NCBI GenBank assembly: GCA_963924565.1
Contig: OZ004608.1
Location: 23,560,001 to 23,624,000 of the forward strand
Source: Ascidiella aspersa
Lineage: Eukaryota
Direction: 5' to 3'
DNA: 64,000 nucleotides
Shown here: positions 1 to 40,789 of the stretch, in pieces
Numbering within the stretch: the stretch's first letter is position 1
How the letters are laid out: every line of letters begins with the position of its first letter
Position numbers and translations under genes: made by a program
The notes under the pieces: generated by a model
Told to the model about the DNA's origin: nothing
The model's input: only the letters and a program-made list of their open reading frames with translations
Database searches by the model: none

Positions 1-3000
1 AAGTATTCGACCAAGCTCCATTGGCTTCACATATAAATTTACCGGTTCCTTGCAATGTGTACCTAACAGTTAAAAATATGTTTACGTCCATCTTCGCTAA
101 AAAAATATATTGAAACATTACCATACAGTCATCACTCATCAGTCAACATACCCGTTATCGCAGACCAATGACATTTCGTCAAGATAATGTCCGGTGTTTA
201 TGGTTAATTGTCCGTTTGCTATTTCTGGCATTGGTGGACACTCGATAGGAGCGCACTCTGTCGATGGCTGTGTAAAGGTGCCTGATCCGGTGCATTCCAA
301 TACTATCACTTCATTCGTTACCACGTGACCTTTTGCACATGCGTACATTACCTTGTTTCCATATCTCGCGTTGGTGTGGTTTTCTAGAACATGGAGTGGG
401 CTTGCTTATTTTGTAGCACACAAATTTCGCAAATATATTTTACGCATTCTTCAGTTGATTACGTGTTTCAGTCTTATTTTAAAGGACAGCCTGTGCGCAA
501 CATTTTGCCCATTGAAAAAACTATCAATAAAGAACTATAAAGTTATCTAGTTTTAATCAAACCTGAAACAAGATAAGCATTTTTGAGATCGGGTGGCGTC
601 CCGCAGCTTCTGGGCTGGCAGGCGGGTGGAAAGTTGTCAAAGAAACCATCGCTTTCGCATCGCAGGACCAACGGCGTGTGAACCTCGTGACTTGAAACAC
701 AAGACATTAACAAGGAGATAAAATAATACGCCAATACGTAAAACTCAGAAGAAACTCCGAAGTGAAAAAACATGGTCCCCTTAATAACCCGCCAGCACTT
801 AACAAATAGCCCATTAAACCTAAACTAAAAAGTAAAATTCCAAGATTCCGTTCGTCTAAAACTCCTAATCAATTGTTCTACTCTGTAAACAATTTGTAAC
901 TAAAAACAATTTGAACCTGATAAACAGAACATATTTTTCGCTTTGCACACCAAATTTTGTTTTTTAGTAACTTGTTTCATAATATTACTTTAGAAGTCGG
1001 ATGCGGTGGCGTCTCTGAAATATTCCATGCCCTCAGGAACTAAATTCCTTTAGCTGTTTTACATGACGATAATTACATTTCGAATTTGTTCTTACTAGCT
1101 GATCTTATATAAACTGTAGCTATTAGAATTACCAGAGGAGCAGTTTTTGATTTATATAGCTGATCTTATATTGACGATATGACATGATCACGCTCAATAC
1201 ATTAGTTAACATACAACAAAATTTGCCACAGTTACCTACCCAAAATCGCATTCATAAGTAACGTTGTCGCCGTATCGCACTTCGTGGTGTGACGGAAAAA
1301 CAATTCTTGCTTTAGCCACTGTCGGTGCGTGGCCGCATGACACCCGGGTACAAGCTGGAATCTGTGCTGACCAGTTGCCGGTGGCAAGACACATAGTGAT
1401 CATAGACCCGAGTAAATCGTAACCTTTAGATGGAAAATGAACTTTTGTTGTATTCATTTATAATGATCCAACATTGAATCATCATATTACTCGCGCATTG
1501 AATCACCGCATTACTCGCCAAGAGAGTATATCAATTATTTTGAAACTTAACAGGCATATCCCTCGTTATTTACCATGCATTTCAGTTTTGGCATTTATGC
1601 AATCCGAGGGATTAGATTATTTCGTAATCTCGGTTCACAATAAAACAACGGCTGTGACTTAACTTACTCTTCAGTATTAATATGTTGATTAAGATTTGAC
1701 ACATAAAACGCAAAATTAGAAGATCAATAATTATTTTTGATAAGCGTTTATTTCTGGAATCTAGACTCTATAGGCTTGATCTATAGTATTGTGAAGTAAT
1801 TATTTGTAACTGTCAACCTAACAGATGCTAACTTGTGTTTGCAATTCGCCAAATGCGCTTGTTCAGTAGATAGCTTACCACTATCACAATTGTAAATCAC
1901 AATCTCTCCGAAAGTGTAGTTGCCCTGGGGAAGAATATTGCCGTGTGAAGGCTCGTTGGGTGGTCCGCAGTCCACTGGGCTGCACACAGGACAAGTGGCA
2001 GACCATTCCCCAGTTTCTTGACAGACGCGCTCAAAGTTTCCCGACCTTATATATCCAGGGTGACAATGATATACTGCCAAGTCGCCGAACTTGGTGCCGT
2101 TTATATCTAAACATAAACGGATAACCGTTTAAAATCTCAGTGAAATCCGTGGCCTGGTTTAAAAAAAAACTTGATCTTTTTCTTTGAGAGGTATAACAGG
2201 ATAAAACGTGTAGCTACTTTTTGACAAACGCTAAGTAGTCTTGTCAATATCTTCGGACCTGACAAGAGTGACGAGGTCCTCTTTAAATCTTTATTTGATT
2301 TCCACTTTAATCATTTAGGAGCTATGCGTATCTTGGCACTAAAAGTTATGCAACTTGAAAACAATGAAAGCAATTTAATATAAAACCATAATAGCCGTGG
2401 TACAAATTAAAATCGATTTAAAAAAATAAAGCAGCCAAGTGTCATAATATCGAGTAATATGTATTTTTTGTAGACATATAGCGTCACGTGTTCTTTTAAA
2501 ATAAGTTTTACTCCATCCAACAGTTAGCAACGTATATGTAACGCGAACACAGCCCATTTTGTACCTACTACATCTTAAAACCATAAACCATTTTAACATC
2601 AGTCAACTACCTACAGATCCAAAGGTAATAGTGGGCGGGATGTTGCAATCGACTTTCTCGCAAGTAATCGATGACGTGGACCACCTTGCATCTGCTTGGC
2701 ACGTAATTTGACCAGTCGTGCCAACAAAACCAGTCGCACAGTGATAGGTGGCGATGCCCTCATAATCCGTTGAGCCGACTGGAAACAAACATTGTATTGC
2801 GCAGTTCTTAGGATGCTAAAATTGAAGTTGTTACAAGTAAGATAAAAGTAACAAAAATTTTACCTTACAATTATAGCTTTCGTATATCCCAAACAAAAAG
2901 TATTGACAATGTGGCTTTTACTGACTATTTCGTTATGCGCGTAGTAGGGTAATATTTGTTTACCATATTGAACGGTATTAGGTACTATCGGAGGTTGGCC

Positions 3001-6000
3001 GCAAGAAATGCGCTGACAGGTTGGTAAAACTCCGTCGAACTTCTTGTTGGCATCACATCTAAGTTCTGGTTCCCCAATCATTCTAAAACCCGGTTTACAT
3101 ACATAGTGCAGGACTTCCTAAAAAAACATTAAAATACCTTATTACCGACATACAACCTATATAACGGTAAATAAAATGTAAATCTTTTTATTACCATTTT
3201 ACATTCATATAAAATTATTTCAGCTCTTGAAATTCTTTATTTTCAGGAGGAACAATACTGTTCAGCTAGTGAGAAAATGCGAAGATTAAACCCATAGTTG
3301 TTTAATTTTATATATGTATGTGTCAATTGCGACTGTTAGTGTTATTACCTCAAACACATAGTTGGTGATATTTCCGCTAACGAAACCATGAGCGATACCA
3401 CTTGGCTCACCACAAGAAACTCGTTGACAGCTAGGTCGTTGAAGTTCACCATGAGTTGTTATGGTCAGTGGTTGAAACTGGCCGTCCGCATTACAAGTGA
3501 ACGAAAGTTCACTATTTCCGGTTGGCTGAAATCCCTCGTCGCAGGTATACGAGATTTGGCCGCCAAAGGTGAAACTGTCGCCGAGCCTCTTTGCGTTTTT
3601 GCTTTATTTTTTAAACACAGTTACGTACATGGTAACAAATCAAACAGATCTACTGTAAAGCATTAAAACCTTCAATGATATGGTTGTTGTTAACTAGTGT
3701 AAGGACAATAATTCATTAAATTGTCGGAATCGTGTAGTAAAGCCTTTGCGGACAATACCGGATATATGGTAAAGTCAAAATATACTCACATAGGTGGCAT
3801 TGGTTTGCAGGGCACAGGCTCGCATTTGGGCAGCGGCCTAATCCATTCTCCATCCGGACCGCAAGTAGCGGAAGTCCATGCAGACTTGTTATTCACGTAA
3901 CCGTGATCGCACTCAAAGTGCACGACATCGCCGAACACATAGGTAGTGCCAATATGGCCAAAAGCCGATCGTGGCGCCAAACGGGCTGCAGCATCTATTT
4001 GCCAATGCGCCTTCTCAGGCAACGGTTCTGCGCTACCTTCGCCACTACCGTGGGAGAATGCGTTCGCTGATCTTACCAATATTGGCATGGCGGTTCGCAC
4101 GACACTTGCGTGGTTTAAGTGGGGAGCTTCACCACATGGGACAGGCACACAATTTGGTGGAGCAGGCGACCAAGCTCTATCCGAGGTACATTCGATTGTA
4201 GCTAATCAAACAAAATTTGAACATGATTATAAAAAGCCATGAAAGAGCGTTTGAAGAAAAATCTCATACTTTTGTGAAAAAAACACTTTTTTTTAGCTTT
4301 TTAACAAAAAAATCTTGTAGGTATTATATTAATTACAAACTGACGGCATCGATATGTGTTGCTGATAATAAGATTTACCAGAGCCCAACAGGAAATATCC
4401 TCGCTTGCAGCGATATGTGATAGTTGAGCCGAATGTTCTTCTTGATGGTGTTCCCCCATCCGAAGCTATAATCTCAGAGTTTGTCACATGAAGATCTGCT
4501 CCACAAGTGACTCGATAACACGCTGGTGCCTCAGACCGCGACCATTTTCTTGGTAAAACATATATGTAGTCGGAATTTTTTTCTCAAAATTACGAACATT
4601 TTTATTGTTTTTGGTCATAGATAGATATTTTTAATGTTTTGGAAAAGGATTTCCAGGGAGCAGCGAAAGACCGTTAGGATATCAAAGTCAGCTGCTCCCA
4701 CGTGATTCAAAGAACAAAATGCGTGTTTTAAACCACGATGAAATTATGACGAGTATTAAGTATTTGATGATTCGGAAGCAAAGTCGTATAACCTAATTTG
4801 TAAATTATTCGAGCGGTCAAGACTATACACACAAAAAACAAAAGACGTAACCAGATATAGTTGTAAAACCAACACCATGGTTGTAAATTTACCCGTTTTG
4901 TGTGCAAGTTAGAGATTCCTCCATTTTTGATCCTGTGAACTCATACCCGAGGTCACACGAATATGTTGCAGTTTGGCCGTAAACGTAGCCCCCTGTGACT
5001 TTATTTACATCTGCTGATTCGAGGCGCCCGTTTTGTCTAGGCGGTGCGTTTCCGCAAGGCACGGGTTCACAAATCGGAGTTTCCTGGTCCCACGTGGCGT
5101 TAGCACGGCACAACAGCGAACCAACCGTTTCCGATTTTTTAGGATTAAAAAATCTGTACCCGGAATCACATTCGTACTGTACAAGGTCCTCAAATAAATA
5201 TACACGATGACTGGTCCGTTTGTCTGCGGAGGATGTCAGGTCAACTCGGTGGAAACTGCCGTGGTTTATGGGGAAGGGCGCTTGGCAAGACACCCTGCGG
5301 CATATTGGGGCGGGCTTGGGTCCCCATTGGTAGTTGGCCTGGCACGATTGGTGGCTGTCGGTGGCCGGGTAAAGCTCGTATCCATCGTCGCAAACAAACT
5401 GAAGGACACTTTCAAAAGTGTACGAGTCCACAATTGTCCTAGAACAAAAAAAAAATATATTTTAAAGACCTTTCCTACAGATCATATTTAAACAATTGGT
5501 ATTCAAATCTTAAATCGAGAAACTCATGGACGATTTTGCCATACTACAAGTAACAAATCACATATAGGTACACATTTTAGAAGTATATTTTGCATATGTA
5601 CAATCTTTTAAAATGTCATGCTATTTTGTTACTTGTATTAATGACATGCATGCCAATTACCTAACAATTTGCGGTAAAAGTGATTTGCGTGATTTTAATC
5701 TGCGGTAAAAGTGATTTGCGCGTGGAATCTAACATGTTACTGCCTGTTTAACAAAATTCTTTATATATTTCGTACAAGCCGCGAATGTTGACTTACCTTC
5801 CGTTTTGTATTCTTGTCGGCTCCACGCACGACAAAGCGTTACATCGTATGGGGATAGCTTCTGCGAGCGCGTTGCCGAAACCCCAAACCTTGTTAGCCTG
5901 ACATACCTTACACAAGTTGCCTGAAGGGCACCCTTCGTCACTGCTCGATCCGCTCAGTTCATAACCTCAAATATAAAGTAAGTTTTTGAGGCGTTGGTTA

Positions 6001-9000
6001 ATTCCATATAGTCACATCTTGGCCGTGTACTGCCGCTCTGAGCCTCTGAGTAGATATACTATGGTTATTATTTAAAATCACCGTAAGAGTATCCTATAAG
6101 CATTTATGGTGGCCAGGGATTTTGGTTGGGGAGGCATAGAAAAATTCAGAGATGACGTCACAAAATTACTTGTTCTCGAGCGAATTCGTGCGCAAATATG
6201 CAGATGAATCAGCATAATTACGCTGAAGCGCTTAAACAATTACGGATACTTGGATTAAATTAGCATAACTTAATCTGAAGGTGAAGAGACTCGCATATTG
6301 CTCCATATTATGATATTTATATAGTTTAGTTTAAAATAAATTGCAATATATAGAGTTTACACAATGCCAACATGATACAATATACATGGCACCTTTCAGC
6401 GAAATACACTTTCTGATAGGACAAAAACAGTAAAACATATAAATAGTAGAGAAAAGAAAAGAATGGCTTGCATTCCCCATGTGTACGCCCTTGTTTATAG
6501 GTCACATAATATTGTGCTATAATGCCATGTGTTCCAACCCAAAATATAAACAAGTAATATATAACGAAGATGAAAGTAGGTTCAACATTTTATTTTGCTC
6601 CAACAATGTGTGCTTTTCAAAAGCCTTAGCAGTTTAGTGATAAATCTACCTGGATGGCAAGAATATGAAGCTTTTGATGAGTAAGTCTCTGTCGTAAACG
6701 CCACATCACCATTCTGCAAAATCATGGGTGCGCCGCAAGTTATAGGATGGCAAACAGGTAGACTGCTGCTCCAGGATTTGCTCGCAGTGCACTTGATAGT
6801 TTTGCTTGCCAAGCCTGTCCAACATAATATATTAATGTCTTAAAAAGCTGATTTTTTTACAGTATCACACTTAAATCATTTACTATAGTATTAAAATGTA
6901 AATACCCTTAAATCAACCGCGCGCAAATGTTAAGTTATTTTGTTGGGAATCGTTTCGCATTTGGACAATGCTGTACACTTACCGTTCTTCATTTCATGTC
7001 CGACGTCACATGTGTAGGTTAGGTTATGACCGAAAGTGTAGGCGCCACTGCTAGCAGACACAACCCCGTGATCAATGCTGCCAGGATCGCCGCACGACAC
7101 CGGAATGCAGGTTGGGGGTGGGTGGTCAAATACTCGTGTCGCAGTGCAGGTCAGTGTCGATTCTCCTGACATTTCGTAACCTACGACAAAAAGACAGAAA
7201 AATGAGTGTAAAATGTTAAAAACTGATTTACGACCTTTTTGATAATAATAAAGTTTAAATAATTTCCATCTTAGAGCCATGGTAAAACACAAAATCGCAC
7301 AAAAATCGTCGTATTAGCCAAGAGTAAGCTGACAAAACGTTTTGAGTAGGAAAATATTTTGTCTCACGGTAAGTTGATATAAAAAAATAAATCATTCCGA
7401 GGCAGAATATAGTGCTCTGTCACGTGTATACTTGCAGTGCGATTTTCTAAAACGCTGTTAACGTGAAGCTAAAAATGTGAAAGGCTCAGTGCTTACCGGA
7501 ATCGCAGACATAGGAAACGGTGTTTCCAAGAAAGAGAGCGGAAGACAGTTTATACTTGCTGTTGGTCACATGGGGGGCTCGGTCACATGACACCGGGGAA
7601 CAAGTGGGCAGTGGGCCAGACCAGGTTCTGTCTGCTTGACATATCGAAACTGGGTCGCCCTGAAATAAACCAATGAAGCTAACTTTCAAAGCTATAGTAA
7701 ACTTAGATTAGCTATGTATTTCAATAACCTTTCACTTTTCATTCAATGAAACATGCACACACAGTGTGCTAACAATTCAGATCTAGCCCCTTGAAGCTGC
7801 TTTTTGACCAACGACTGATCTATGTTGCAAGCAGGGCAGGTTAGAAAAACAACTAGCCTGCAGTGAGGTTTGAACTCACGACCTCCGGTCAAGCCGGGCC
7901 GGTCCCGGCGTTTTTTCAGCCTGCCCTGCTTGCATCATAGATCAACAGATTCGGTGAGTCTGCAATGGCTTTCGTGGTACTTTCACTTTTCAGTTATTAT
8001 TGTTGTAAATGTGACAACTTGCTTACTGTCATTTCGTATCCGACGTTGCATCCGTAAGTTACTTGCTTGCCAAATGTATGTACGCTGCCATTAAATTGTC
8101 CATTTAAGATAGACGACGGTGTGCCACAAGAAACTGGAGGGCATCTGGGTGGCAGGTTTGACCAGATGCCGGTCGACTGACAAGTTAAAATCGCGTTTTC
8201 GTTTGCACCGCGATCGAGTTCGAGATGGTATCCAGGTTCGCATGAGTAAGTCACCGAACGTTTGAACGTAAAGTCGTTTTCGTCTTGTGATTGTTGGTTG
8301 GTATAGGAAGCATGTAAAACGATATTTGGACGACCGCACGAAACCGCCGCGCATGTTGGAGCTTGTTCTGGCGACCAAACTCTATAAAATACAGACATAA
8401 TGTGGGCACTGAATCTCGATCTTCATACAGTTTTACAAAAATAAGGACGTATGTGCCACAGTGCAAATGAGCTATTTGAAAAACAAAATTTAATATGTTT
8501 TTAGACTGGAATCAGCACGATAAAATTATTCTTACGCCTTTGGGATATGCTTGGCGTGAAGTTACTTGCGTAACTGAGCAATCAAAAATAATTAAGTAAA
8601 TATAGTGGACTGGTACTTACTTGCCCGCAGTACATCTCGCATTGACGCTACCGACCAGTCTGTAACCAGGCTCGCAGTTGTAATCGACACTGCTGTTGAA
8701 CGTGTATACATGACCAGTTGTTAAAATGTGATCGGAAACTGGTGGAGTTCCACAAGAGACGGGGTGACATTTACTAGGACCCGACGTGGGTTCCCACCGT
8801 TCCTGATCGGTACACGTGAGGACTTTTACCGGAGACGGTTCCTGATGTTCGTAGCCAACATTACAGTTGTACGTCACAACGTCCTCGAACACAAATAGTG
8901 CTGTGCCTCCTGCATGTTAAAAAAGATTACTTAACAGGTTTTCGACGGGGCCACAACAGCAGTAATACTGTGCAATAATAATTTATATTCTAATTAAGCC

Positions 9001-12000
9001 TGAAAACGTGTATGGCGCAATTACCCGTAGATTCATAAGAAAATTTAAACAGAAAAATAGTACAATGAGTGAGATATTTGCTAAATTAGTTCGATTAAGT
9101 GTGGTGATGGTCCCGAGCAATCGTATTAGCCGACCTTATCATAACCCACGTTCTGCAATACAAGCTATATTGGCACCAGTCAATACTTTAGAGCAGTGGT
9201 TCTCAACCTTTTTAGCTTACGGACGGGTAAAATTCCCAAACAAAATTTGCGGACCGGTGGACCTTCAAAAATCAACTCAAAAAGTATTTACGACAAAAGT
9301 ATGCCTCTTAAAAGCAAAGAATGGGAACTTCAATGTAGCCTAACGACCAATTTTCTTCTTTATACGCGGTTCGTTTTTCACATACAACTGTTTTTTTACG
9401 TTTAAGACTTAAACGAATTGAAGCCTGCTTTTAAACAGTTGGCTACAGCACAACTGCAGCATCGTGACGTACGATAAAGTCCAAATCTGACCATTATTCT
9501 ATGTTACGCCACAATGGTGCAAATAACGGAACTGTCGAATTCAACATCTTTCATTTTGCAATTGACATATAAAATTGTAATATATTTGGCGGACCGGTAT
9601 GAAAGTTTACGCGGACCGGCGGTTGCGAACCACTGCCTTAGAAGGCTTATTTACCTGTGACTGAAGCTGCAGTGTAAGTGCCGTGCATGAGGGAAAGGGG
9701 TTCCCCGCATGACGTCCTTTGGCATGAGGGAGGCGACGAAGGGCCGAACGTGCCATCTTCAAGACAGGATAATGAACTTGATCCTATAGCGAAAAGATAA
9801 TTATGTTTAAAAGGCGTTGTCTTTTTACCTCTCTCCAAAAAATTGTAAATGGTGTATTTACGATTAGAAAATATACTCCTAAAAACGATGATAATCTGTA
9901 CGGCTAATTTGAACCTTTCAAAAAGAAACCATCGTCGCAGATGTACGAAACAGACTGTCCGAAAACGAAGTCGATTGTTATGTTCACTTGGGTCCCGTGC
10001 ATCAAGAGGGGCGCTTTGCCACAAGAAATTGGTTCACATGTTGGAAGAGCTAAGATATCTGGGACTTCAAAAACAAAATAAATAAAGGGTTATACATTTG
10101 GTATTGCTTTTTTAGTTCTACATCCTGTAAACTCGGCATAGTTGATTTTAAAAGGTCGTGAACTTTGATGGCGTTAAAAGAAAGGAATATTTCACCCACA
10201 GTTTGGTTTAGGCTGTTTTTTACACATACTAATCAACTGTGGTTTTAAAGTCGGGCAAACTTTACGGGAAATATGGTTGTAAAATTACCATTTGGTTTAA
10301 TTAGGGTTATACTATGTTGAAGCCTGTAACCAGGACACAGTCATTATATCCAGCGTTTTGTTAGTTGGTATACAAATATTACGTCACAAAAACAAAGAGG
10401 CATGGGGCGAATTAGGAAGTAAAATAATGTTTGCGACGAGTTTAAATTAGTTGGAAGGTAAGACGTTGTTTACATCTTGTTCTGGCGACTTTAATAGATA
10501 TTAGTCTAACAGGTTAAAGTCTATTTTCGATGTAGGATAGGTGTTATTCTAACTTCATTTTTTGCGTTAAAAAAATCAGTACTGAGTCAATAACCTGTTA
10601 CAATAATAGATTAATTACTATCACAATAAAACAAAAAACACTTTCGTCATGTTATAGCACAAAAAATTGTTACAATTGGCTTATGCTAAAAATAAAACAC
10701 TGGTTGACTAAATTTAAATTACCTGATAGAGCGCTGCGAAAGTGAATACTTTTAGGTGCATCTAAAATAGAACAAAACACATAATAATTAGACTTTAGAA
10801 AAGACTTGTAATGTAAAAGATTATCATACTTGAATGTGATAGACCAACATAACTTGAAGCCGATGCGTCTATTTCACCAGACCCCAGTTCTATCGCATCA
10901 CCGCTTCCAGAACCTTCTACAGATCTACGTTGCCGTTGTATAAGTGGAAGGACTGCAAAGTTTCCAATATTAATAGAATTAAAACGTTCGATATATATTT
11001 CAAGATAGTTGTAAAACAATACTCGCGAAAGATTTACGCGACAAATGAGAAAACGATACAAAATAAGCAAAACTAACATAGGGTTCTAAATAATACAGTT
11101 TAAATCGAGGCTACTTAGTCGCCGTTGGCAATAGTTATAATAAAATCAAACCTTATTTTACTGTCAAGAATTAGCAACGGAAATGACTGCTATTTTATAT
11201 AAACGCCTTTATCTTACCAATTGGTGGATGAACAAGGTCCGAACGTAAAGGAATCCACTTTCGTGTATGTGAACAAACCCAGTTTCCGTTGCCCAATAAC
11301 TTGTAGCCAGGTAAGCATTTGTAACTTGCTCGTCTTTCGAATGTTAAGCCTGTAATTTAAATCCCAAAATATCTGACATGTTGGCTCAGCATTAACTGAG
11401 TATGTCCAAGCACCGTCCTGTCACTACTGCGACTTTCTCAAACATACAATAGTTTCCAGAACTCGGGTCACCCTATGCTTTTTCGTGGCACGATAGGTCT
11501 ACATAGATAACACTTGGGATCGCAAAATGTTTCTATAAATTAAATGTGTTAGACAATTAATAAACCCTAAAGTATCTTTTTTTATTTTTATACAGAGTTT
11601 TACTATTAACAACTCACCCAATAAAATGTTTTTTTTATCATATAATCTTAAATATTTGTTGCTTAAATCAGATCAACACATCTACCGTAGTTTGGAAACA
11701 GTTAAAATTAATTATGATGGAGTAAGCCCTATAGATCAGCCTTTCGAAGCAAACTAGAAACAACAAACGTACCGTCAAAATTGGAAATTCCATGTTGGAG
11801 TAAGGCGGGTGCTCCACACGACACAGGCAGGCAATGAGGCAAATTGTGCGAGTAAGTGCGTGTCGACGTACAAGTGCGTTGGGACTTTCCCAGCATGTAG
11901 TAACCCTCGTCGCACTCGTAGTTCACCACTTCGTTGTACTCTGGTGAACTGTTGGAAAACACCACGTTTGTTTATACGTAAATTAAAAAAACAAAATTGT

Positions 12001-15000
12001 TTTAAACAAAAATTAAAGAAAGCTATAAAACTGTTACAATTCTGTTTTAATTATTATTAACTGAGCTTCAGTCACGTAACCAAACGATTACACCTACATA
12101 TTGCTATTATGTGTCGTGATTTTGCCGAAGCTGATAGGCTGGGGTTTGGGACACTTGACCGGTTTGCAAATAAGATCATAAGGAATTGTGGACCAGGTCC
12201 CTGTGTCAAGGCACGCCAGGGATGTATCAAACACGTCATAATGAAGCTCGTAGCCAACGTCACAAGTCACGTGGAAGGTGGAAAGATAAGTTGTCCCATC
12301 AGATTTGCAAGCAGCTGCACATGCAAGAAATAATAAGAAAACTTTTAGTAAATATATAATAATGTGTACAACTACATAAGGTGCTACACTTTAATTAACA
12401 TAGTGAATGTTTATTTCAGGAAGTTCTTTTCACAATATACAGCTACAATCGGTGTAACCCTGGGGTTAGATTGGTTTTGTCAGGTTTTTCCTACACCTAA
12501 TAAAGCTTTGTTTTCCGAGCTAGAAGGCTAGTATAAGATCCCTAAAGTAACGTCTTGAAGCAATTACATGTAAAGGGTATAAAAAAATATTGATACATAT
12601 AGATTATACAAACATGATTCTAATATCTATACAGTTTAGAGCTTATCACTTGCAATTATTTTAAATTTTAGTCCCTAATTTGGTAGACCTCTGTCCCAGT
12701 TTTATCAGATATGTTTAGAGGTAGTGTAGTGTAGATCACTCGGTGTTAGATTACCATTTTGTGGGCAAACAAGGTGACCACAATTTTTCGCCTGGCAGGC
12801 TGGAACAGATGATGGACCCCACATTTTGTTGCTTAAACAACTCATTGTATCGACAGAGTTGGGAGTAAACTCATAACCACGGTCGCAACTGTACGTCACA
12901 TTTTCCTGATAGGTCACTCGGTTGTTGCGAAGTCTGTATGTTCCATGATCAATGACTTCAGGGATCCCGCATGAAATTTTGCGGCATGTACTGGCGTCCC
13001 CTGTAAAATCATGACAACAGAAAATGGCAAAGAATGAAGCCAACTAAGAAAAGGACACTAATCACAATACCTCTTCCAAACTTTTATAGTGTGTTAACTC
13101 ATAACAGTACCTTAATATTTTATGGCTGATATTGGTAACCTTAATATAAGCTGAGGCATAAGTAACAAAGTAATCCCTATAGAGATGTATTTAATGTTTA
13201 TGATTAAAATAAAGATAAACTTTTTTTAAACCACAAATCTGCTTAAATTATACCATCGGGCGGCATTTCTGGAACGGTCCATTGGCGATCAGCTGCACAC
13301 GTGATCTTGTAGTTGATGACGTTAGAACTGAACTCGTGACCCGTAAGACATTGTGCCGTAGCGATATGCTGGTAGGTGGTGCCGGTATAATGACAGGATG
13401 ACAGCCCTGGACAGACTGGTATACCACAATCAACTGGCGAACACTGCGGTTGGCTGCTCCACTCTTTATTGGCCTGCGCGAAACCCATTTATGAACAAAT
13501 GTATACCATAGAATTTATTTTGGGTGTAATTACATTACAACGTGCTGCTAAATCAGTGCTTCTCAACCTTTTTTTGCGGCGACCCAAATATTAAACGTAA
13601 GTATGACAACTAAGCTTTGGCGACCCAGTTGTTTTTGCTTGTAAGAGAACAAAAAATAGGCATTAGATGATTAGCATAAAGAATTTCGAATTTTAATAAT
13701 TATCATTAGACATTACTTGTATTGCTTCCTTAATTTTCTTAATTGGGAAATATTGCTCAGAACGAATCTCAATTAGTATAAACAATTAAACATGTGAATT
13801 ACTGCAGTCAGCGACCCAATTTTGGGTCGCGACCCATAGGATGAGAAGCACTGTGCTAAATGCTCAACATTATGGATAGTTTATCGCAAAAATCGCTATG
13901 CCAGTGGCGGATAACAAATCGAAACAACTACAAATCCTGAGAAAGGTATATACAGGCTGTCTATGTGACAAATCGTAAATATAACACTGTCGTTGTCGGA
14001 TGGCATACAAGCGTTTTACCATCGTAAATCGTATTATTGTTACTATACCTGACATCGAATGTCCAAGTCTCCAGACGACAATTCATAGCCGACATCACAT
14101 TGGTATTTAACTACGTCTTGGTAGAGGTTAACTTTAGAAGGCAAAGTGGTCATTGTGACGTGTTCGATAACTGGTAAGTCACGACAAATTACAGGTTGGC
14201 ATCCACCAGCTGGTACAGCTGGATACCAAACCTCATCTGACGTGCAGGTCACATGATGCGTATTTGTCTCTGTTTCAGCGGATCTGGGAACAGAGTTAGG
14301 TTTTTGTTATTCTGTAGTTTTTTTACAGTTGTTCGGTTATTTAGGGCAGGGTTTAAATAGTTGGTCTTGGTTCGCGATATCATTCACTTTGGATATCGAA
14401 ACTCTTTATATATCAACAGCAAAATTTCATGTAAGAGACTTGTCTTCCTTTTTAGTTTTACTTAGTTTGAGCGCGGTTAGCGTTTTCACACGTCACATAC
14501 ACAAAGCCTCGTCGAATATCGCGACGACCTAAAAAAGTTATATCCAGGTGGGGGATAAGGAGTTGCAATCTGATCTTTTTACAACAACATTTTATGCTAA
14601 CGTAAACTTCATGCATTTTTCGCAAACTGTAACTAGAAAAACGCATCATATTTAAGCGATTTATAATGTTCTCGTATCTACATTTATATTTCACAAATAA
14701 ACACTTTAGTGAACACCTTTAAATAAATATTCGAAGCCCAGAAGAAAAAAAACGATTAAATATTAATAAAAACACAACACAATTTTAGTGGGTTAGATGA
14801 AGTTATTTTTGCTCTACCCGTTGTTCGATGCGAGGAATCACTTTGCTAGCAGCTCATCGTAAGACACGGATTTACTAGGTAGTAATAAGTGACTTAACGA
14901 GACTGTTCACCGTTCAACTACCTAACTGTACAACGCAATTAGGTCACAAAGGAACCGTTTTTTTTCACAATGTAAAGCATTAATGGATCATGTCTTGAAG

Positions 15001-18000
15001 TCTGTCGCCCCCTAAACCAAATCCTAGACTCGCACCTGCGCTTGCTGTTAAGTAAGTTTTTGCCCTATCGCGAGACGTCGCGCATTTTTTGTGGGTTGTG
15101 CCAAAAAGTATTTGTCAGCATAATTAATTTTTCTATAAGAATAAACAAAAGCAGAACACAAATTTGTAATTACTTTTATAAGTTGTTAAAAAAAATTGTG
15201 ACAAACATACAGTTTTAACAGAGCTATTCAATTAGAAACAAAATAATTTGGCACTGGTAAATTTGGGTCCTGGTAAAAAGTATTTGCCCTAGCTTTAAGT
15301 GTAGTTACGTCAGCCATTAATAGGACTATTTAACAAACATGTTAAAAATAAATATGGACCAATCGTAATCCATGAAGTTTTTTAATCTGATTTATTTACT
15401 ACACACAGTAATATTACGAAAATAAACAATAAACAATGAAAAAAATAGCACAACTTTACCTTATCTTGTGACCAACGTTGCAAGTATAAGTTGCTTTGTG
15501 ACCGAAAGTAACGCCATCCGCGCTAACTGTAGCCATCGGGATCGGTTCCGGTGCTCCGCAAATGACAGGTAGACAATACGGAGAAGCCAAACTAAACGTA
15601 CCTATATAGTAAAAATGGCATCAGTGAATTGCGCTCAGGAATTATTCTATGGTATAGTTTTTCCATATGTTATTTTTACAAACAATTAAGATAATGTTAT
15701 TTTACAATTGCAATTACATCTCTCATATTAATAAACCATGAATCAAAGTTAGGCGATTAAGTTGAACTATGAGATTTTTTATCAGTTGGTCTAAACTAAC
15801 AATAAGGCTATATCATTATGCTTAAAAAGTTGCTTCATTCTTTCCCAGCCTAAATTGGTCACGCATAATAAGTACTAATCCCAACCATTGTTTGTGCAGG
15901 AAATTCGTGGCACGCCCTCCATGTAGTAACCGATGTCACAAGAATACTCCAAAACATCTGGATAAAAGACTGATTCCATGCTGGTGGCTGGCCAATACGC
16001 TTGAGTAAATTGGACCTTTCTGCAACAGGTAAAGCAATTTGAATATATTCTATTTTTGTTTACAAATGCCAACAAAACTACGTTTTATGCCAACATTTTC
16101 TTTCATTGCAAGATATAAGCTTTTTTTAACATAAGTTATTACCCGTTCGTGATAAGCGGGACAGCGCCACAAGAGACTGGTTTGCAGTGGAAATCGGGCA
16201 CTTCCCAATGACCACTTGATTGACAGGCTAGACTTCGTTGGTGGCTTAATGTGGGAGGTTGTAATAAAAAACCGCTGTCGCAGGTGTAAGTCACCTGCAT
16301 GGAAAACAAGTATTATGAATTGTATGGATTGACATTTGCAAACATTTGTATCCATTTCAGGAGTTGTTAGTTACACAAAAACGCGATTTAACAACTTGGC
16401 CAAGCGAAAATATGAAAATTCTTGCAATTTGTTAATATTTATTTAACTCCTTTATTGAAACAACTTAATAATTAGTGTTTGAAGATATTTTTTGAAATTA
16501 TAAAATATCGAGCATAACGCCCATGTCCGTTATTTATCAGATGTAAAATAAAAATCTATTTCGCCTGCAAAGTAACCTACTATCAGTCTCTAGAAAACAT
16601 TACAAACAATACAATGAAAACATAAATTGGGTTCCATTAATAATTTAATATTGGAAAAAGAAAACATTTCTCACTTTGATATTATGCTAGATCATTTCAA
16701 AGAAATGTTTGTCGTAATTTACTTAAAAATGGGAGGCTATACAATGTACATTTTATAAACTAGCATGCTACCTTTTTAGAAATATTTTCTCTCGGGATTT
16801 ACAAACAAACAACATACCAACACAATTTTCTACCTGTTTTAAGCTGAAATTTATAAGGCCGAAATAAAACCATGCAAATGTTTTCATATGTTTTACTACA
16901 TCGTTTTTATTTGTTAACTTTTAGCCAATAAGCTAAAAATCACTTACCGAGTCTCCATAAACATGTCCGGTACTCGCAAAAGTGGAATTTACAACCGCGG
17001 TTGGTTCTCCACATGGGACAGGATCGCATGACCAATCACTTACATCAGACCAAGCGGCCGAGCCAAGACACTCTGTAGTTCCCGAACCTAAAATTTCGGC
17101 AAAAATATAGGTATTATTTAGATTGACATATTAACTTATGTGTGTTGATGCCCGATGCCATGGACGTTGCTGCATCAGACGTTAAAAATACAAATTGGTA
17201 GACTGTTGAAACAGCCCTACAACTTCATCAAAAAACAAAAATTATATACCTTGAACACTTGGGCTTAAATGATATATCTTTTGCTTTCAACCATGTAACA
17301 ATCTTTGCGATTGTAAAAAAATTAATAACAAAATCAGAACATACCACATTTCGAAATTTATATTCAAGGGTCAAATATAATCTTACGATGATTACCATGC
17401 AGGTCATATCCCACATCGCATTGATAATTCAGTACAGATCCGAAAATTGTTGACGTCACATTAACTCGTGCATGTGCGACCTCAGGTGGCTGTTTGCAAT
17501 CGTGGGGTAAACAAGCTGGAGAACTCGACCACGTCCGATTTGCTTGGCATCGAATCTCAACAGGACCTAAACGGAACACTTTATCTGAAATGCGTTCTGG
17601 TAAAAATTATTTAACAAATAGTGAAATAGGTAAATTCCGGCAAGATACATTACTAAAAAAAAAAAATATTTTTTTTAAAAAGCTCATCTGGGGAGGCATA
17701 TAAAATTATCTTACAAATATACACAACTAATTTTTATAGATTACGGGAAATTATGTTTTCGCGATGGAACTGATATACCTGCGGCATAATGACCGTGATT
17801 GCAAGAATAACTGGCAGATTTCGTAAAAGTTGTTCCTTTTGAAACAAAGAATCCGTTTTTGATTGTCTTTGGCATTCCACATGACACAGGCTCACAGATC
17901 GGAGGAACTCCCATGTAAAAACCCTACAAAGAGTCATTTCTTTGAACAAATGTTGGACAATAACTGGAAGTCATAAGGTTGTTATGCGGCAAAATTTAGT

Positions 18001-21000
18001 CAAAGTGATGCCTATTCAACAAAAAATATCAAAACATTGCGTTAATGATAGTGTCGCGAAAAACTTAAAAAAGATCACAAAAACAATATAAGATAGCATA
18101 AATACCCCCCAAAAACATATATTTTAATTTGGGCAAGATTATTATCTTACTCTTGCTTTAACCTAATTATACGCGATTGTGCAAAAGTTTGTCAACATTA
18201 ACATTCGTCAGCGTAACACCTTAATTTAAGAATTTGCTAAAGACAAATACCGCGATTTACGAAGAAAATAATTATAAACTTAATCCAACTTTCATTTAAG
18301 CAAAAATGTAACTTTTAACCTTAAAGTCTCCTTCGAAAGCCGTGCATTCGAATCTTTTTGACAAATTGATCAAGTCGTGACCTCGGTCGCACATGTAGAC
18401 AACCTCCTCGCCGTACGTATAGTTGCGTTGTGAGAATGTACCGTTAGCGACCGCCGGGGGAAGAGGGCAATGGACTCTCCGGCAGGTGGGCAAGTGGTTG
18501 ATTGTGGCACCGCCGGGTCCTAGCTCAGCGCCAAACTGCCAGCTTTTGTCAGCTCCGCATACGGCATTAGTAGGACCGGTTAGATAGAAACCTTGAGATA
18601 TAAACAATCGGAAATGACTGCGCGGTATAAGCCAAACTTTTAAAGTTACACTAAATGTAGTGTTTTACATAATAGAAATTATCCTTTTGACCACGACTGT
18701 GCGGTAGGACACAAATGGAAATGTTTATGCATAAGGCAAATAAAAAATACCTTTATTGCAATGGTATGCTACCAGGCTCTCGTAGATTTGCATGTCTGGA
18801 CTGCTTCCTCCAGTACTTGTGCTGTGCCGTACAGTGGGAGGCGGCCCGCAACTCACTGGACTGCACACGGGAATTTCCCGGTCCCACCAGCCCGTATGTA
18901 GGCAAGTCAAGGTCATGTTCGATTGCGATTCGAAACTGATTTGCAATTTGAAATTAATTAGTTTACCACACAAACAATCTTAAATATTGGGATGGTTTTA
19001 AATTTATACAGTGAATTTTTTAACAAGATTTTTAAAGAAAGTTACAAAAAGTATCTATACCCAGGGTTACAGACAAACGACACAGTTGCCATAAACAAGG
19101 TATCGTTTCCCGTCTTTTTGGAATTTCGTACAGTTGGCAATCTTCCGCAATCTTTTGGATTACAAGATGGCGATGGACTGCAAATAATATACAACATGAT
19201 ACATAGCACATATATATATTTACAGAGAGAAATATACTTCCATGTGTCTTACATAAAGTTAAAAATCCAGGTGCATATTAAAATACAAAAAGCTTCAGAC
19301 GCTGTGCATAAGAAAATATTGTGATGTGAGCCATGACAATACGCTGCGAAACTATTGTTCATACAAGCTTTTTACAGAAATTAAGACAACGCAAATAACT
19401 TAAGTCACTAACATATAACATTTTAAAGATAAATATAGATCAGATTTTATAGTGTGTTTTCAACCTTTTTTCTTGTGACGTTTTTTAAAAAAAATTGGAT
19501 TTAGGAAGCACCTAACGATAGGAATTTTACTAATTCTTTTATTACCGTAATTAAGTTTAGATACAAAACGAAATATCTTTAAAAAAGGAAATTGAAATGG
19601 CACACCGGGCCGAGGCGACGTTCAGTTTGAGAACATCTGGGCTATGGTAATTTATCGCATACCAACCTAGACCAAGTTTTTTCAGCAGTACAGTTAGCGG
19701 TGGTTTTCCCGCTTGGTAAGTATCCTTTGTCGCAGCTAAAGTCGACCGTTTCTTGGTACAAGAAAACGCCTTGTTCAGACACAACAAGCTAAAATAAACA
19801 GTTGTTATAAATAAAGGTTAAAAAGAAAATTGTGGTTACAGGGCTTTTCAGATCTGAGTACCAGTAGGCTACTCGACATCAAAATATAATACAAAAATAA
19901 AACTGCTTTATATAAAATTATAAAAAGACCTATTACTTACAGGACAATATTAACGAATTTACAGTACAAGTCATTTACATTTTACAGGGTTATAGGTCCG
20001 AAGAAATTGATTTGACGAAAATCGTTCAGGTTGATAAACAAATAGGCCAAGGCACAAGTTACTAAAAAATAAATCGTCAAACGTATGCTGGGCATAAGAC
20101 AATGTTTGCATTCTTAGGAAAAATATTTACCAAATGTAAAATGTTGGCGCTGCTCTTGTTTAGCATGCTACCTTTCTTTAAAAATCTACCTGACAAATTG
20201 TTCGACTTAAGATACTATAGGTGAATAAAACTCCCAATTGAACCATTATGGTAAGTCAAGTTTGATTTTCCATTACAAGGTAAGACAAGGCTATATAGCT
20301 ATATTAAGTGTAAACGGCTTATTAAAAATACCTACCCGACCATGTTTAGGTGTCTCGGGTTTGGGACATTTTACCCTAGAGCATTGCGGTGACGGGCTCC
20401 ACATACCATCGGCCTGTATTGAATAATGAAATTTTATTGGGTTAGTTATAAGTACGTTAAATTATAACAGGGATAAATTGAAGTTGTAAAAGTGCTGTAA
20501 GCGCAGCAATAAAACGGAACAATAATCAGTATAAAAAAAATAGATTTTGTAACCTTGATATTATAAAACAATTATTTTACATACGCAAGATTAATCGTTT
20601 TATATAGGTTATAATTACTACTTAAAACAAAAAATACAAACCAAGCATTCGACAGACGCGAAAGTTGGGTCTACCAGTTCATATCCTCGGTGGCATTTAT
20701 ACATGACAGTGGAATGAAAAGTGGTCGAAGTGCCGTCCCACAAAATATCAGAGTGATCGATCTCCGGTGGACCTTCGCAGTCAACCGGATGACACATCGG
20801 TGTCGAATGATCCCAAAATCCGTCAGGCAAGCATGTTGCGTTTTCGGCTCCGTCCAAAATATAACCGTCATGACAGGCGAAGAAAACTGTCGCTCTGAAG
20901 ACGTGGGAATCCCCTGGAAAATAAAGCGTAATTTAAATTGCATTTGACATTCAAGCAAGGTGAACAGGCATTGTGTGATCAGATATACACTGATCAGTAA

Positions 21001-24000
21001 AATCGGCACAACTCAACTGAACACAGAAAATCGCTTCTTTTTTGACAGTGGTTTTACAGGAACCTGGGTGATTGGCGAACGAAGCAACATTGACGTTGTT
21101 CATGTCGCAACGACACGCACTATTACAATATAACCGCTTGCTGCATTTGGCACCTTTTGTGATTTAGATCTTTTCCCATTTGGGTATTTATAAAACTGCT
21201 TTAACGAAAATATGGAACCTGATCAGGGTTGGGCTTAAGCACTCGCCCGCTCGCCAATGCGAGTACAAATTGCTCCTAGCGAGTGCTGATTGACACCCAC
21301 TCGCCCGACTGGCGAGCGGCTTTGGCGAGAAATTTAATTAGTTGGTGTAGGTCAGAACAACTTGTGTTAAAGCACCACTACTAAGCTAAATATTACTTAA
21401 CGCCAGTTATTTCCTTAAACACTAAAGACACAAATACATTTAGCACTACACAATCAATAAGGTCAATGGAAGTCATGTTCGAAGCTTGTAACAAGGACTC
21501 TCTGTCCCGTTGTATGATCGTAATAATGATTCTTTGTCCTGTTTTAAAAAACGCTTACCGGCAAACCAAAGACGTCATTGCTGCAGTGGTTAATAGTTTT
21601 AGAAAAAAGGAAAACAGGCAGGCCGTGGCTACTAAATTGTCAGTGTTATTTTTTCACTAAACATTTTATAAAATATTTCGGCTAAAAAACATTGTTTTAA
21701 GCGTAAACTGCTTTATGGGTCGTTAATTTGTTCATCCACGCATGAAAATAAACGACCAGACTTTTAGAAAAACTAATGTTTACGTATAGAAACCAAAAGA
21801 CAGCTTAACGATAACCAAATAAATGACCGCGCTAGGACGTAAATGGGCAGGCGGCGTGCCAACAAATTTGGCGAGTGTTATTTTGTTCGGGCGAGTGCTG
21901 ATTGATAAGCGCTCGCCCCGCCGGCGAGTGTAAATTTTTGCTTAGGAACAACCCTGCTGATGCAACAAAACGTTGTGAAAAGGGGGTTTCACATCCGTGT
22001 GTTTCACGCCTTGTCTGTCACACACCGAATACCTACCCATTGCGTCTCCATTTAGAGGAGAACCTGGCGATCCGCAGTCTACCGGAAGACACTCCGGGGG
22101 TTCGTAGTCCCACAGTTCGTCCCACTCACAAAATAGGATGTTTTCTCCAAACATTTCATGTCCAGGTAAGCAAGTATAAGTTGCAGAAGATTGATAATAA
22201 GTAGCTAAAGAAACAAAAACATAACGTAGACCGAAACGCTTTACCATGCATTATACGCATTTCCTATTTTTTAAGTTTTAATGGATTTTTATCAACAAAA
22301 AATCAAAAAGTTGATTTATCGCCGTCAATGTAATTACACGTTAAACTTCATGTTGCGGATTTGCCTGTCTGAACATAATAATTTGTACATTCAGCTACCA
22401 TTTGATATTATTTTATGAGAGGAAACAGTCATTCAGCTAAACAGAGCATTTAACATTATAACTCACGTTACGGTTCTAAATAAATCTTAATAACGTTAAA
22501 AGCAATAAAACAAAGACGTTATCATTTTCATTTAACTTCAGTAACCTATATAACCAACTAAACAACAGTATATTAGTTCAACTAAAATGAAAATCTGTAA
22601 GATCACTTGTTGTGTTGAGTACGGCGTTTTCAATGTCGGGAAGCATACCACAATCCACGGGCACACATTGAGGGGCCGGCTTGTTCCATTCGCCTGACAA
22701 AGACCAAGCAAAAGTTGCAATGACAACAAACATTTCCTAAATAATAGCAACTATGTGTGGTGTTTTATTTATACAGTTTAACACCGACAATCATGCGATT
22801 GTATGTTTATTTAGGGTGATTTGGTTGGGTAGGGTAAATCGATTGATTCTATCGTTGTTAGTTTAAATCTTGCTTAAGCAACATTCGTTATGCTGCTTTA
22901 GTTTTGCGATTGGTATTAAAATAATAATGACGGCAACTGTGTCAAACACTTTTTTATATTTTGTAGTCAGAAGAGTCGACACCACTGACGAAAACCTACC
23001 TGACGGTTCGCAAAACGCATGGTCAGCTCCGAGCAAGTCGTACCCTTGATCACAGGTGTAATTAACTCCGAGTGGAAAGTGGTAAGCGTCGCCGGTGTGA
23101 TGTCCGTTGTGGGGATCAATTGGAACTTCACATTGCACTGGCAGACAGGTAGGAACACTAGAAGCAGACCAGACCCCTGCGGATTAGAAGTTTTTTTATT
23201 CATTAAAGTGCATTCATAGAACGTTTTCCGTACTGATTGTGAGTAAACGTAACTATGCCATTACCAAACGTTTCACGATAGTACACTGGATTTCTCCGGG
23301 GAGGCTTATTGAAATCAGTTTATCTAAGAAAGTAACAAAGCGCTCCACTAACACAGCGGCTTTCCCTTTTTTGTGCACCAAAATGTGGTTCGGCATTACT
23401 GTTTTAGGTACAACAGAACGGCGGACTCACACTGGTAGATATAGAGTTATTTCTAGGATAAGGACTTGTCATTTCGATCCAAAACTAATTTTAATTATTG
23501 TAACAAAATGATTTGGTTTACTATCATTCACCATGACGATGACTATTCCTAACATTCTTCAACCTTTTTTTTTAAACAAAGTTGCCCTGGTTTGAATGTA
23601 TAACTTTTGGAAACAATTTTCCATAGACTCCATACCAGTGATTTTTAACCTTTCATGGCTTACGGCGCCCCTCAAAAATAATAAATAGATATTATCGGCA
23701 CCCGACTGGAAATTTCGAGTATTATATTGAAATGTCACTATAAATGGAACTGGAACAACACAGTCAACTTTAAAACATGCAGGAAAATGTCATTTAATGC
23801 AATGGTATCTTATCGTTCAAAAATAGGCTAGTCGATCAAAAAGGTTAGGCTATCAATTGAGCAAAAATTAGATTCTTAAAAATTCTCACATACCTATCGG
23901 CACCTTTGAGCATTAGGCCTAGAATTGGCACACCAGGGCGCCGCGGTACGCCGGTTGAGAACCACTGCTTCTACCCTTTCACTTACAGCTTGCTCTGTGA

Positions 24001-30000: not shown

Positions 30001-30147
30001 ATTACATAAGTTTTATTTTGCAGAGCGACACTCTTTTTGAAAATATAGTTGAAGATGCACCAGCGACACCTTTTATTGTAGTGCTAGGTAAAGTTTTTGC
30101 TAGTAATAATGTTGTTACAAAATCACTTAGTAAACATAACTAATTAC

Positions 30148-30180
<33 letters not shown>

Positions 30181-39100: not shown

Positions 39101-40789
39101 ATCAATGTGCAGTTGAATCCGTCTCCTGCACAATTTCAAACAATAAGCTCGAAAAATTTAAAACAGGATAAGATTTGCAAAAGCATATTTTTGGTTGGAA
39201 TATGGATCAACAGAAACAATTAAGACAGGGTTTCTTAAACTTTATTTCCCGCGGACCCCTAGAATATTTTCTGCTTAGCGTGGACCACGGTAGGCAAGAA
39301 CTTTTCAAAAATGACGTCATAAATTGACATCACAATCAAAATGGACTTCAGAAATATGCTGATTTTATTTTTATAAATTTAGGTCACAATATAAACAGAA
39401 TTTTTAGAAATATGATGATGGTTTAGGTAAAATTCTGAATGATTCAGTGCTAAAACGTTTAATTTTTAATTAAACTCTTTTCTTTGAAAAATTGATTACT
39501 TAAAATACACTTAGGTTTCATTTTGGCCTTCGTGGACCCTCAAGAGGTCCATGGACCCCAGTTTAAGAACTCCTGACATCAGACGTTTAACTGCAAAAAC
39601 ATGCAAAATTGATCAGCATTGTTTAATTGGAATAAAAAATAGCTCTTGTGTGGCCGAAACACTAAGTAAGCGGTATGAAGCAGACTGTTTCTAAGTGTAA
39701 CAGACCTGTGTATCCCCAGTTGCAGTAGCACTCGTGGCTTCCCTCCGTGTTTATGCAGTAGGCGGTATGATGGCAGAGATGATCATTGACACACTCATCA
39801 ATATCCACACAAGTTGGAACAGGCGCTGACCATTTCTAAAAATATTGTAGTCGCTTTATGTTATAATATCTACAATACAAAGAGAAAGCGGTAATTACGC
39901 CTTATTTATCAACTGCAAAGCCCTTAAATTTTTTTAACAGTCTTAAACAGTAGTTCTTAACCGGGAGGTTGCGATCTCTCCTATACACATTCTTTTTTTT
40001 TCTTCTTGAGTTAACAGTCTTTTTCTTCTTGAGTTAACAGGCACAAATTTGATTATACGATGTATTGTGTGGATCGATACGTTTCAGAAATCGCAAGGTA
40101 TAACACGGTATATCCGATTATTATGTTTGTATTGTCATGATATCTAAAACCCTGTGTTATAGGGCTCTATGCTACATAAATAAAAAATTCTAAATAAACA
40201 AACAAACAAAACTTCGATAAAAGTGATCTTACATGTCAATAATAAGCATCTAAGGTAAACTGACGTTCCATACCTGATCAGCCTGGCATCTTATTGCGGT
40301 TGCCCCGTGCAGTTCATACCCAATATTGCACGAAAAGTGTACAGTGTCGTTGAATTGGCGGCTGGTTGAATCCGCAATAACCAGCGGAGGCTGCATAAAG
40401 TTTAAAGCAACATGAATACTTTACAACAAACATTATACATCAACGGGTTGCCAGTGTGTATAAAACAATAACAACAAATAAACGCTGACTTATTTCGAAG
40501 GCATTTTTAAAAGTGATTTAATTTTACGCGTTGCTGGGCTTTGCCAATCTCAAACGAAACTCAGCAATAGCGTTAAAATAGGAATTTAACTTACTGTACT
40601 AAAAGCTTTGCATCTCGTCCTGACACAAAAGAATTTCTGAGATGGCTGTTGCACTTCAGATCCTGCGTGCTTCCACAGACCTCTGTTTCCGCAGCGCAGC
40701 AACGTAGTCTTGGCTCGCCTGCTTCCAATCCCAACCCTCGTGTAAAGCTGAAAGCCATTCTGGCACGACACCCAACTCTTGTGCGCACC
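1..40789 (-). CDS. SVEP1: SVEP1-like CCP/Sushi array (2 CCP + cbEGF + about 56 tandem CCP modules; runs off the window)
   Basis: Recurrent C-x-x-P..(N/H)G..(Y/F)xC..GY...C...W...P.C modules joined by 4-residue linkers (e.g. CEPVSC), counted manually over 65 exons. Confidence 0.93.

Follow-up and report, generated by a model that had tools for sequence, protein, structure and literature searches.

A conserved loop with furin-type and Ser-Gly motifs within one CCP module of ascidian SVEP1/polydom

In vertebrates SVEP1 (polydom) is a disease-linked protein of the matrix, with tail modules that bind Tie1 and integrins; the sister group of vertebrates is the tunicates. The domain order of SVEP1 is described as VWA, ephrin-like, CCP, HYR, SEA-like, ephrin-like, EGF, pentraxin, CCP tail and three EGFs (PMC12549020). 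Mouse polydom is reported to be cut into pieces of 115 and 270 kDa (PMC10281526), and a furin site of the N-terminal part was placed shortly before R997 (PMC13722417); the accessible part of PMC7545080 does not mention cleavage. The insert of vertebrate CCP21 is described as functional and carries the integrin motif EDDMMEVPY (PMC10281526); an insert of this type was also seen in protein P0227. The human enzyme SULF2 has a disordered hydrophilic domain in which furin cuts at Arg538 and at Arg565; its subunits are disulfide-linked, and it bears chondroitin sulfate on Ser583, 18 residues past the second cut, a modification that requires a cluster of five acidic residues in the seven before the serine (PMC13405426). 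Domain V of beta2-glycoprotein I is cut at Lys317-Thr318 by plasmin or factor XIa, with altered function (PMC11416255). LEV-9 and the proteins Hig and Hasp are secreted CCP-array scaffolds that are proteolytically processed, and LEV-9 needs its C-terminal cleavage (PMC9083331). With regard to glycosaminoglycan (GAG) attachment, [ED][GA]SG is reported as a stringent chondroitin motif of C. elegans, with the caution that motifs alone mislead (PMC8418075), and human chondroitin sulfate sites are said to sit in disordered regions (PMC10424144). Literature searches, which covered titles and abstract starts and few subscription journals, returned no title that deals with SVEP1 of ascidians or with a loop for furin or a glycan inside a CCP module.

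Host gene and parts of module 36

The window is the whole stretch of 64,000 nucleotides of Ascidiella aspersa DNA that was analysed. The genome around it measures 308.6 Mb; its mitochondrial COX1 has AGA/AGG where glycine is conserved, and its nuclear part gives a match to GH6, a domain of tunicate cellulose synthase, both of which point to an ascidian. Judged by domain order and sequence similarity, the host gene of the loop is the ascidian SVEP1/polydom. A splice-aware gene model, trained on the same region, gave an open frame of 5,237 aa on the minus strand, which runs from EGF repeats through a pentraxin and the CCP tail to three terminal EGFs, these last lying about 12 kb outside the window. 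Pfam matched EGF, Pentaxin and Sushi in the window part, and the closest BLASTP match was the Clavelina SVEP1(-like) protein (39.5% over 4833 columns). VWA, ephrin-like, CCP, HYR and SEA-like parts were placed by an exon scan on exons upstream of the modelled frame, and the exons of the N-terminal VWA, ephrin-like, CCP and HYR domains were matched in order upstream of the window by tblastn with four annotated or architecture-matched SVEP1s. Full-length ascidian SVEP1s were recovered by profile search; single-exon homologue searches among proteins of up to 2,000 aa gave no match, the pentraxin exon yielded no family of use in the ESM Atlas, and comparison of that exon with representative proteins returned no full-length ascidian protein. 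After the EGF the model has a CCP tail of about 73 modules; module numbers are approximate because the model has small faults (modules 11 and 19 lack pieces of exons, and the donor in module 37 is weak). The parts on which the analysis centres are as follows.

1..58129, minus strand: part of SVEP1/polydom in the window (ephrin-like repeats, EGFs, pentraxin, CCP tail); the gene extends past both window ends
11773..11948, minus strand: exon closing module 35 and opening module 36, with Cys1 at 11818 (gene model; RNA depth 2.8-3.9)
11218..11349, minus strand: exon A, phase 1-1, with Cys2, Cys3, the conserved Trp and the first 12 loop residues
10830..10952, minus strand: exon B, 123 nt, phase 1-1, with the furin motif and three Ser-Gly dipeptides
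10924..10935, minus strand: furin-type motif RQRR; the cut is predicted to fall between 10924 and 10923, ahead of Ser
10897..10917, minus strand: EGSGSGD, with the serines at 10911 and 10905 as candidates for xylosylation
10873..10890, minus strand: ELGSGE, third candidate serine at 10881, with four acidic residues within 8
10723..10761, minus strand: exon C, 39 nt, phase 1-1, with RNA joints on both sides and an Arg-Ser dipeptide
9915..10064, minus strand: exon D, phase 1-1, with the loop end, Cys4 at 10038-10036 and the first half of module 37

Exon A gives a Pfam Sushi match (E 1.3e-5); in exon D the acceptor 10064 comes from RNA and the 3' end 9915 was inferred from the corresponding exon of the orthologous metagenome locus L019 (see below). 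Module 36 has the four cysteines and the conserved Trp of a CCP (minus strand: Cys1 11818, Cys2 11317-11315, Cys3 11275-11273, Trp 11257-11255, Cys4 10038-10036). The insert contains no cysteine, and the Cys at 10038 is therefore the fourth of module 36. The spacing from Cys3 to Cys4 is 81 residues, against a median of 12 and a next largest value of 24 among the 73 modules. An earlier note on this DNA had described about 60 residues inserted between Trp and the fourth Cys of about the 35th array module. The long insert in a single module stands, and the position holds roughly, at module 36 of 73 in the gene model; the length was corrected because the RNA uses donor 10830 and acceptor 10064, so that the stretch from Trp to Cys4 measures 75 aa, about 69 above the usual.

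Elsewhere in the modelled SVEP1, RX[KR]R occurs only twice, both times adjoining a structural cysteine. The strict motif [ED][GA]SG occurs only 2 times in the whole of the 5,237 modelled residues. RX[KR]R together with three Ser-Gly was obtained in 1 of 10,000 draws of 75 residues from the array composition, and shuffling the loop itself gave it about once in 1,000 trials, for motifs chosen post hoc in both cases. Counting 8 residues to each side, the loop serines have 3-4 acidic neighbours and no dense cluster, and the SULF2-type chondroitin sulfate sequon (five acidic residues in the seven just before the serine) is absent from the loop. At 10914 both DNA runs carry an allele that changes Gly to Ser and breaks the first EGSG; two RNA reads have the reference base.

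A 43-nt exon outside the window (L005 4792-4834, minus strand, approximately window 68792-68834) carries RKRR and, past the next joint, RLRR, in a loop of the SEA-like region that is acidic and rich in Tyr; this is the N-terminal furin site of the family. Styela and Clavelina have this site as well, and the neighbouring tyrosines in the present gene resemble sulfation sites. Both the SVEP1 identity and this site are additions to the earlier note.

Other modules of the tail also depart from the standard form. Module 49 (window 3790-4201, minus strand; 109 aa) has a second long insert, between Cys1 and Cys2, with HGSGEGS; its orthologue in Clavelina has a 121-aa gap with RRVR followed by Ser and two Ser-Gly in acidic context, and that in Styela a 68-aa gap with two Lys-Arg pairs. 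This insert may be a third loop for processing or for a glycan. A self-comparison gave no recent duplication that would tie module 36 to module 49. In Clavelina and Styela, Cys2 and Cys3 of module 11 are separated by a conserved insert, about 60-70 aa long, and a matching stretch, partly missed by the gene model, lies at window 28384-28557 and 31979-32101 (minus strand). Modules 32 and 34 (window 13428-13254 and 12782-12309, minus strand) have an extra cysteine pair after Cys1 and thus six cysteines. The SVEP1 introns host nested genes on the opposite, plus strand: a leucine-rich-repeat gene by Pfam (window 46766-47572), a 731-aa frame with no Pfam match (54448-56640), a Pro-rich WW-type frame of 898 aa (63981-66674), which we take to be PRPF40-like, and frames resembling membrane receptors at about 80294, 92148 and 93565. 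Locus L003 (approximately window -11348 to -21831) has two near-identical copies of the final EGF exons with their adjoining frames, at a distance of 6.6 kb, and is either a recent tandem duplication or an assembly artefact. Locus L013 (G000 contig C7), on a nuclear contig, has a fragment resembling COX1 that is probably mitochondrial DNA copied into the nucleus.

Splicing of the loop exons

The RNA evidence covers about 6% of run X3 (50 records, many on a repeat), with three reads needed for a joint. Joint 10830/10761 has 4 reads and joint 10723/10064 has 6, and both small exons, B and C, are therefore expressed. The earlier note had placed the core of the insert on these two phase 1-1 exons and had named their inclusion in transcripts as a check. 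RNA depth is 2-6 reads in the region of module 36 and about 0.3 over the furin codons. The joint between exons A and B is not among the RNA joints listed, and a coverage hole lies there (depth 0.01-0.3). No skip junction is among the joints listed, against 6 and 4 inclusion reads, at thin coverage in about 6% of the run. Of the three donors proposed for exon B, 10830 is the one in use (4 reads); 10854 and 10845 rank at the 2nd percentile of the donors of this gene and are used by no RNA joint. Donor 10878 was rejected as the main site since the RNA joint uses 10830, and acceptor 10058 since the joint uses 10064, 6 nt upstream. A mis-predicted exon or intron read-through was ruled out by the RNA joints and by L019. 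The splice sites of the loop exons are ordinary for this gene (33rd-86th percentile; exon B 33rd and 35th). RNA depth of at most 1.6 in the intron before exon A (window 11386-11573) represents unspliced precursor or intron retention, and window 9600-9650 is a short high-copy intronic repeat at which contig depth reaches tens of thousands.

All four inclusion and skip combinations of exons B and C stay open in frame. Skipping exon B would delete the furin motif and all three Ser-Gly, and skipping both exons would leave 21 residues from Trp to Cys4. The exons are thus skippable in frame, as the earlier note had put it; skipping itself was unseen. Phase symmetry is weak evidence of skipping because phase 1 is the commonest intron phase of the gene (43/82 array introns; 21/82 exons are 1-1) and because the flanking core exons A and D are also 1-1, though unskippable without breaking a module; it was rejected as a sign of regulated skipping. 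In Styela and Clavelina all 6 models that extend across the module include the loop (another four cluster members do not reach across it); where RefSeq has isoform pairs for these orthologues, they differ outside the loop. The earlier proposal that splicing toggles the loop is unsupported by these joints and models, and in the preferred reading inclusion would be constitutive.

Conservation, fold and readings of the loop

The profile search returned 348 proteins, and the best 120 of these, the basis of the survey, include two full-length ascidian SVEP1s, P0163 (Styela clava) and P0165 (Clavelina lepadiformis). A pattern scan of metagenome contigs gave 7 matches, namely the orthologous locus L019, another CCP array (L015) and 5 unrelated ones. 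The source of L019 is taken as an ascidian because the flanking core is identical at 18/28 and 21/38 residues and the intron positions are identical. By collinear module matching, module 36 is the insert-bearing module in both Clavelina (Z 5.2) and Styela (Z 5.0). The motifs were defined from the window before the orthologues were compared. RX[KR]R and [ED][GA]SG are found in a loop of the orthologous module in 3 of 3 other ascidians (Clavelina, Styela and L019), so that the furin-type and Ser-Gly motifs of the looped-out insert, whose conservation the earlier note had named as a check, both recur. The furin position reads RRRR in L019, RARR in Clavelina and RSKR in Styela. From Trp to Cys4 the loop measures 77 aa in L019, 55 aa in Clavelina and 106 aa in Styela, with identities to the 75 aa of the window of 31/75, 20/55 and 12/75, respectively. 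GSG lies 5-13 residues past the cut in 4 of 4 ascidians (12-13 in the three others), and the strict [ED][GA]SG is present in all four loops, before the cut in Styela and after it in the other three. The four cysteines and the Trp are kept in 4/4. L019 has the same four exons and three phase-1 introns, the counterparts of exons B and C being 99 and 51 nt long, and its exon A is identical at 25/44 residues. RX[KR]R came up in 1.0-5.9% of shuffled loops, and together with a GSG at most 20 residues further on in 0.006-0.03%; the odds of the four species do not multiply because the loops are homologous. The divergence between Styela and Clavelina is dated to about 389 +/- 32 Mya (PMC5899321). Near the loop end (exon C, 10723-10761) an Arg-Ser is present in all four species, with Arg-Ala in one Styela allele, and may point to a further cleavage by a different protease. 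Among the matches listed, no model of Ciona, Phallusia or a larvacean was identified.

The wider survey comprised 121 SVEP1-like proteins: 116 of 118 new rows from the best 120 of 348, after two non-SVEP1 rows were dropped, plus 6 found earlier, minus one without a pentraxin. The tail was located by a BLAST anchor, and the sample is vertebrate-rich. In this set a Cys3-Cys4 gap of more than 30 aa is found in 2/121, both ascidian, and in 0/119 non-ascidian SVEP1s. RX[KR]R occurs in any tail insert in 4/121, the two ascidians and P0146 and P0152, which are two models of one gene. A cysteine-free N-terminal region with RX[KR]R, counted by motif only, is present in 113/121, and cysteine-free tail gaps of more than 55 residues in 60/121. 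Module matching was too weak to name a counterpart of module 36 in amphioxus or vertebrate tails.

CCP disulfides join Cys1 to Cys3 and Cys2 to Cys4 by established CCP chemistry. As a stand-in for the window module, a three-module stretch of Clavelina was submitted to AlphaFold with a 4-row alignment. One of five models exceeded a mean pLDDT of 50, at 64. In this model residues 117-162 are unstructured and a strand at 166-169, with Cys4 at 167, is ordered. It aligns with CCP2-4 of CD55 at Z 11.5 (rmsd 6.2, 179/230 aligned), and its modules 2-3 align with domains 3-4 at Z 10.0 (rmsd 2.5, 118 aligned, range 63-230). The prediction is consistent with an ordinary CCP from which some 50 residues loop out, with the strand of Cys4 back in the core. 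The genome encodes a xylosyltransferase and several convertase P-domains. Features of furin/PCSK substrates are found in the RQRR followed by Ser, with its counterparts in 4/4 species, in a loop predicted to be disordered; those of proteoglycan cores are found in the Ser-Gly, the nearby acidic residues and the predicted disorder.

The loop is real, conserved and probably functional. With confidence a little on the favourable side of even, we read it as a constitutive second furin-type nick in the middle of the rod, with the halves kept together by Cys2-Cys4 and GAG likely on Ser-Gly. Both loop exons are present in mRNA, in a handful of reads. The module is predicted to fold around the loop, its last strand and Cys4 rejoining the core. 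Xylosyltransferase would prime at least one GSG serine in the disordered loop, as the motif, its conservation and the enzyme gene suggest, and a convertase would cut after RQRR in the Golgi, in addition to the N-terminal site of the family. The presence of that N-terminal site makes the loop the second one, near the middle of the remaining rod: furin-type sites lie at residues 902/917 and 3914 of 6505 in Clavelina and at 913/934 and 4304 of 6634 in Styela, and the ascidian CCP tail is more than twice as long as the vertebrate tail. From these positions the secreted pieces would be an N-terminal one of about 900 aa, a middle one of about 3,000-3,400 aa and a distal one of about 2,300-2,600 aa, the last two joined by one disulfide plus one strand. 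A likely use would be that of a polyanionic anchor and a flexible or releasable joint midway along the rod. Cleavage, GAG and the Cys2-Cys4 tether are all inferred, and GAG is the weaker half of the claim because the serines have only modest acidity around them and SULF2 depended on a dense cluster of acidic residues.

An unlikely reading, though one to be taken seriously, is that the loop is cut by a convertase and stays GAG-free, its Gly-Ser runs merely a flexible spacer for access to the site. The modest acidity, the polymorphic first EGSG and the strict motif preceding the cut in Styela while following it in the other three would fit such a spacer, as would SULF1, which stayed unmodified when given Ser-Gly alone (PMC13405426). 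It accords poorly with a GSG with acidic neighbours 5-13 residues past the cut in 4/4 species in a loop that has otherwise diverged, and with the rarity of the strict motif in the modelled protein. Other accounts stress separation of the chains. As a disulfide latch, an idea to which only a small chance is given, furin would split the module and a GAG-tipped chain of 37 CCP and 3 EGF would become releasable, a single disulfide reduction or mechanical load freeing it from the matrix-bound half, with a crustacean latch arising independently. It is quite unlikely that Cys2-Cys4 is absent, or is reduced after one or more cuts, so that the distal 37 CCP and 3 EGF or a glycopeptide part from the rest. 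Such a release point would make use of a cut at module 36 of 73, of a single disulfide as the sole covalent link and of the Arg-Ser that all four species have towards the loop end, with Ala instead of Ser in one Styela allele; that second Arg-Ser lacks a furin consensus, however, the four cysteines and Trp are retained in all four species, and the strand of Cys4 returns to the core in the predicted model.

That exons B and C are alternative cassettes toggling a cleavable proteoglycan state is improbable. Their shared 1-1 phase with every skip combination open, the loss of the furin motif and all three Ser-Gly on skipping B, the lower-middle splice sites of B and the exon borders kept in L019 would suit a switch, but the listed joints give inclusion only (at low power), 6/6 spanning orthologue models include the loop with RefSeq isoform differences elsewhere, phase 1 makes up 43/82 introns, and 21 residues would still stand between Trp and Cys4 without the two exons. 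It is very improbable that the loop is a neutral insertion that is tolerated and has motifs that go unused: tail inserts are indeed tolerated, as the long cysteine-free gaps in 60 of the 121 surveyed proteins (from the best 120 of 348 plus 6) indicate, but two motifs have been selectively kept for about 390 million years in a loop that otherwise diverged.

Comparison with known systems

On the sequences compared, what is new here is a loop of the SVEP1 family with furin and GAG motifs, absent from vertebrate SVEP1. The novelty is one of combination and not of principle, because SULF2, nicked beta2-glycoprotein I and the N-terminal site of SVEP1 are precedents. If the preferred reading of a tethered mid-rod nick is true, the SVEP1 tail was re-engineered module by module in each lineage, with an integrin loop in mammals, a furin and glycan loop in ascidians and a furin loop in a crustacean, and SVEP1 would be an added candidate core protein for ascidian glycosaminoglycans. 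Module 36 and its neighbours would serve as a three-module construct for a disulfide-tethered split CCP.

The vertebrate and ascidian proteins have the same domain order, and the vertebrate N-terminal furin site is matched here by the RKRR and RLRR at and after the 43-nt exon. They differ in the tail, which has 28 modules in vertebrates and about 73 here, and in the insert, which in vertebrates lies between Cys1 and Cys2 without RX[KR]R, whereas the ascidian loop lies between Cys3 and Cys4. The crustacean case is that of P0146 (residues 2120-2336) and P0152, presumably lobster from the accessions, in which one tail CCP has a 215-aa insert that opens with RRKR followed by Ser and goes on in Ser/Gly/acidic repeats. 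A cut there would likewise leave a one-disulfide tether. The insert, known from a database model only, lies between Cys1 and Cys2 of another module in another lineage, and because of these differences the furin-in-CCP arrangement is probably independent.

LEV-9 of C. elegans and Hig and Hasp of Drosophila differ in that the cleavage described is C-terminal and not in an intra-module loop, and the accessible part of the source mentions no GAG site. Beta2-glycoprotein I is likewise cut within a CCP-type domain, and its nicked pieces stay disulfide-linked; the cut is extracellular and not by furin, it lies in a short C-terminal extension of a protein of five modules, and there is no GAG. SULF2 works like the mechanism proposed for the loop, with a furin cut, disulfide-linked chains and a GAG shortly after the cut, yet it is an enzyme without CCP, needs an acid cluster and is cut outside a small disulfide module.
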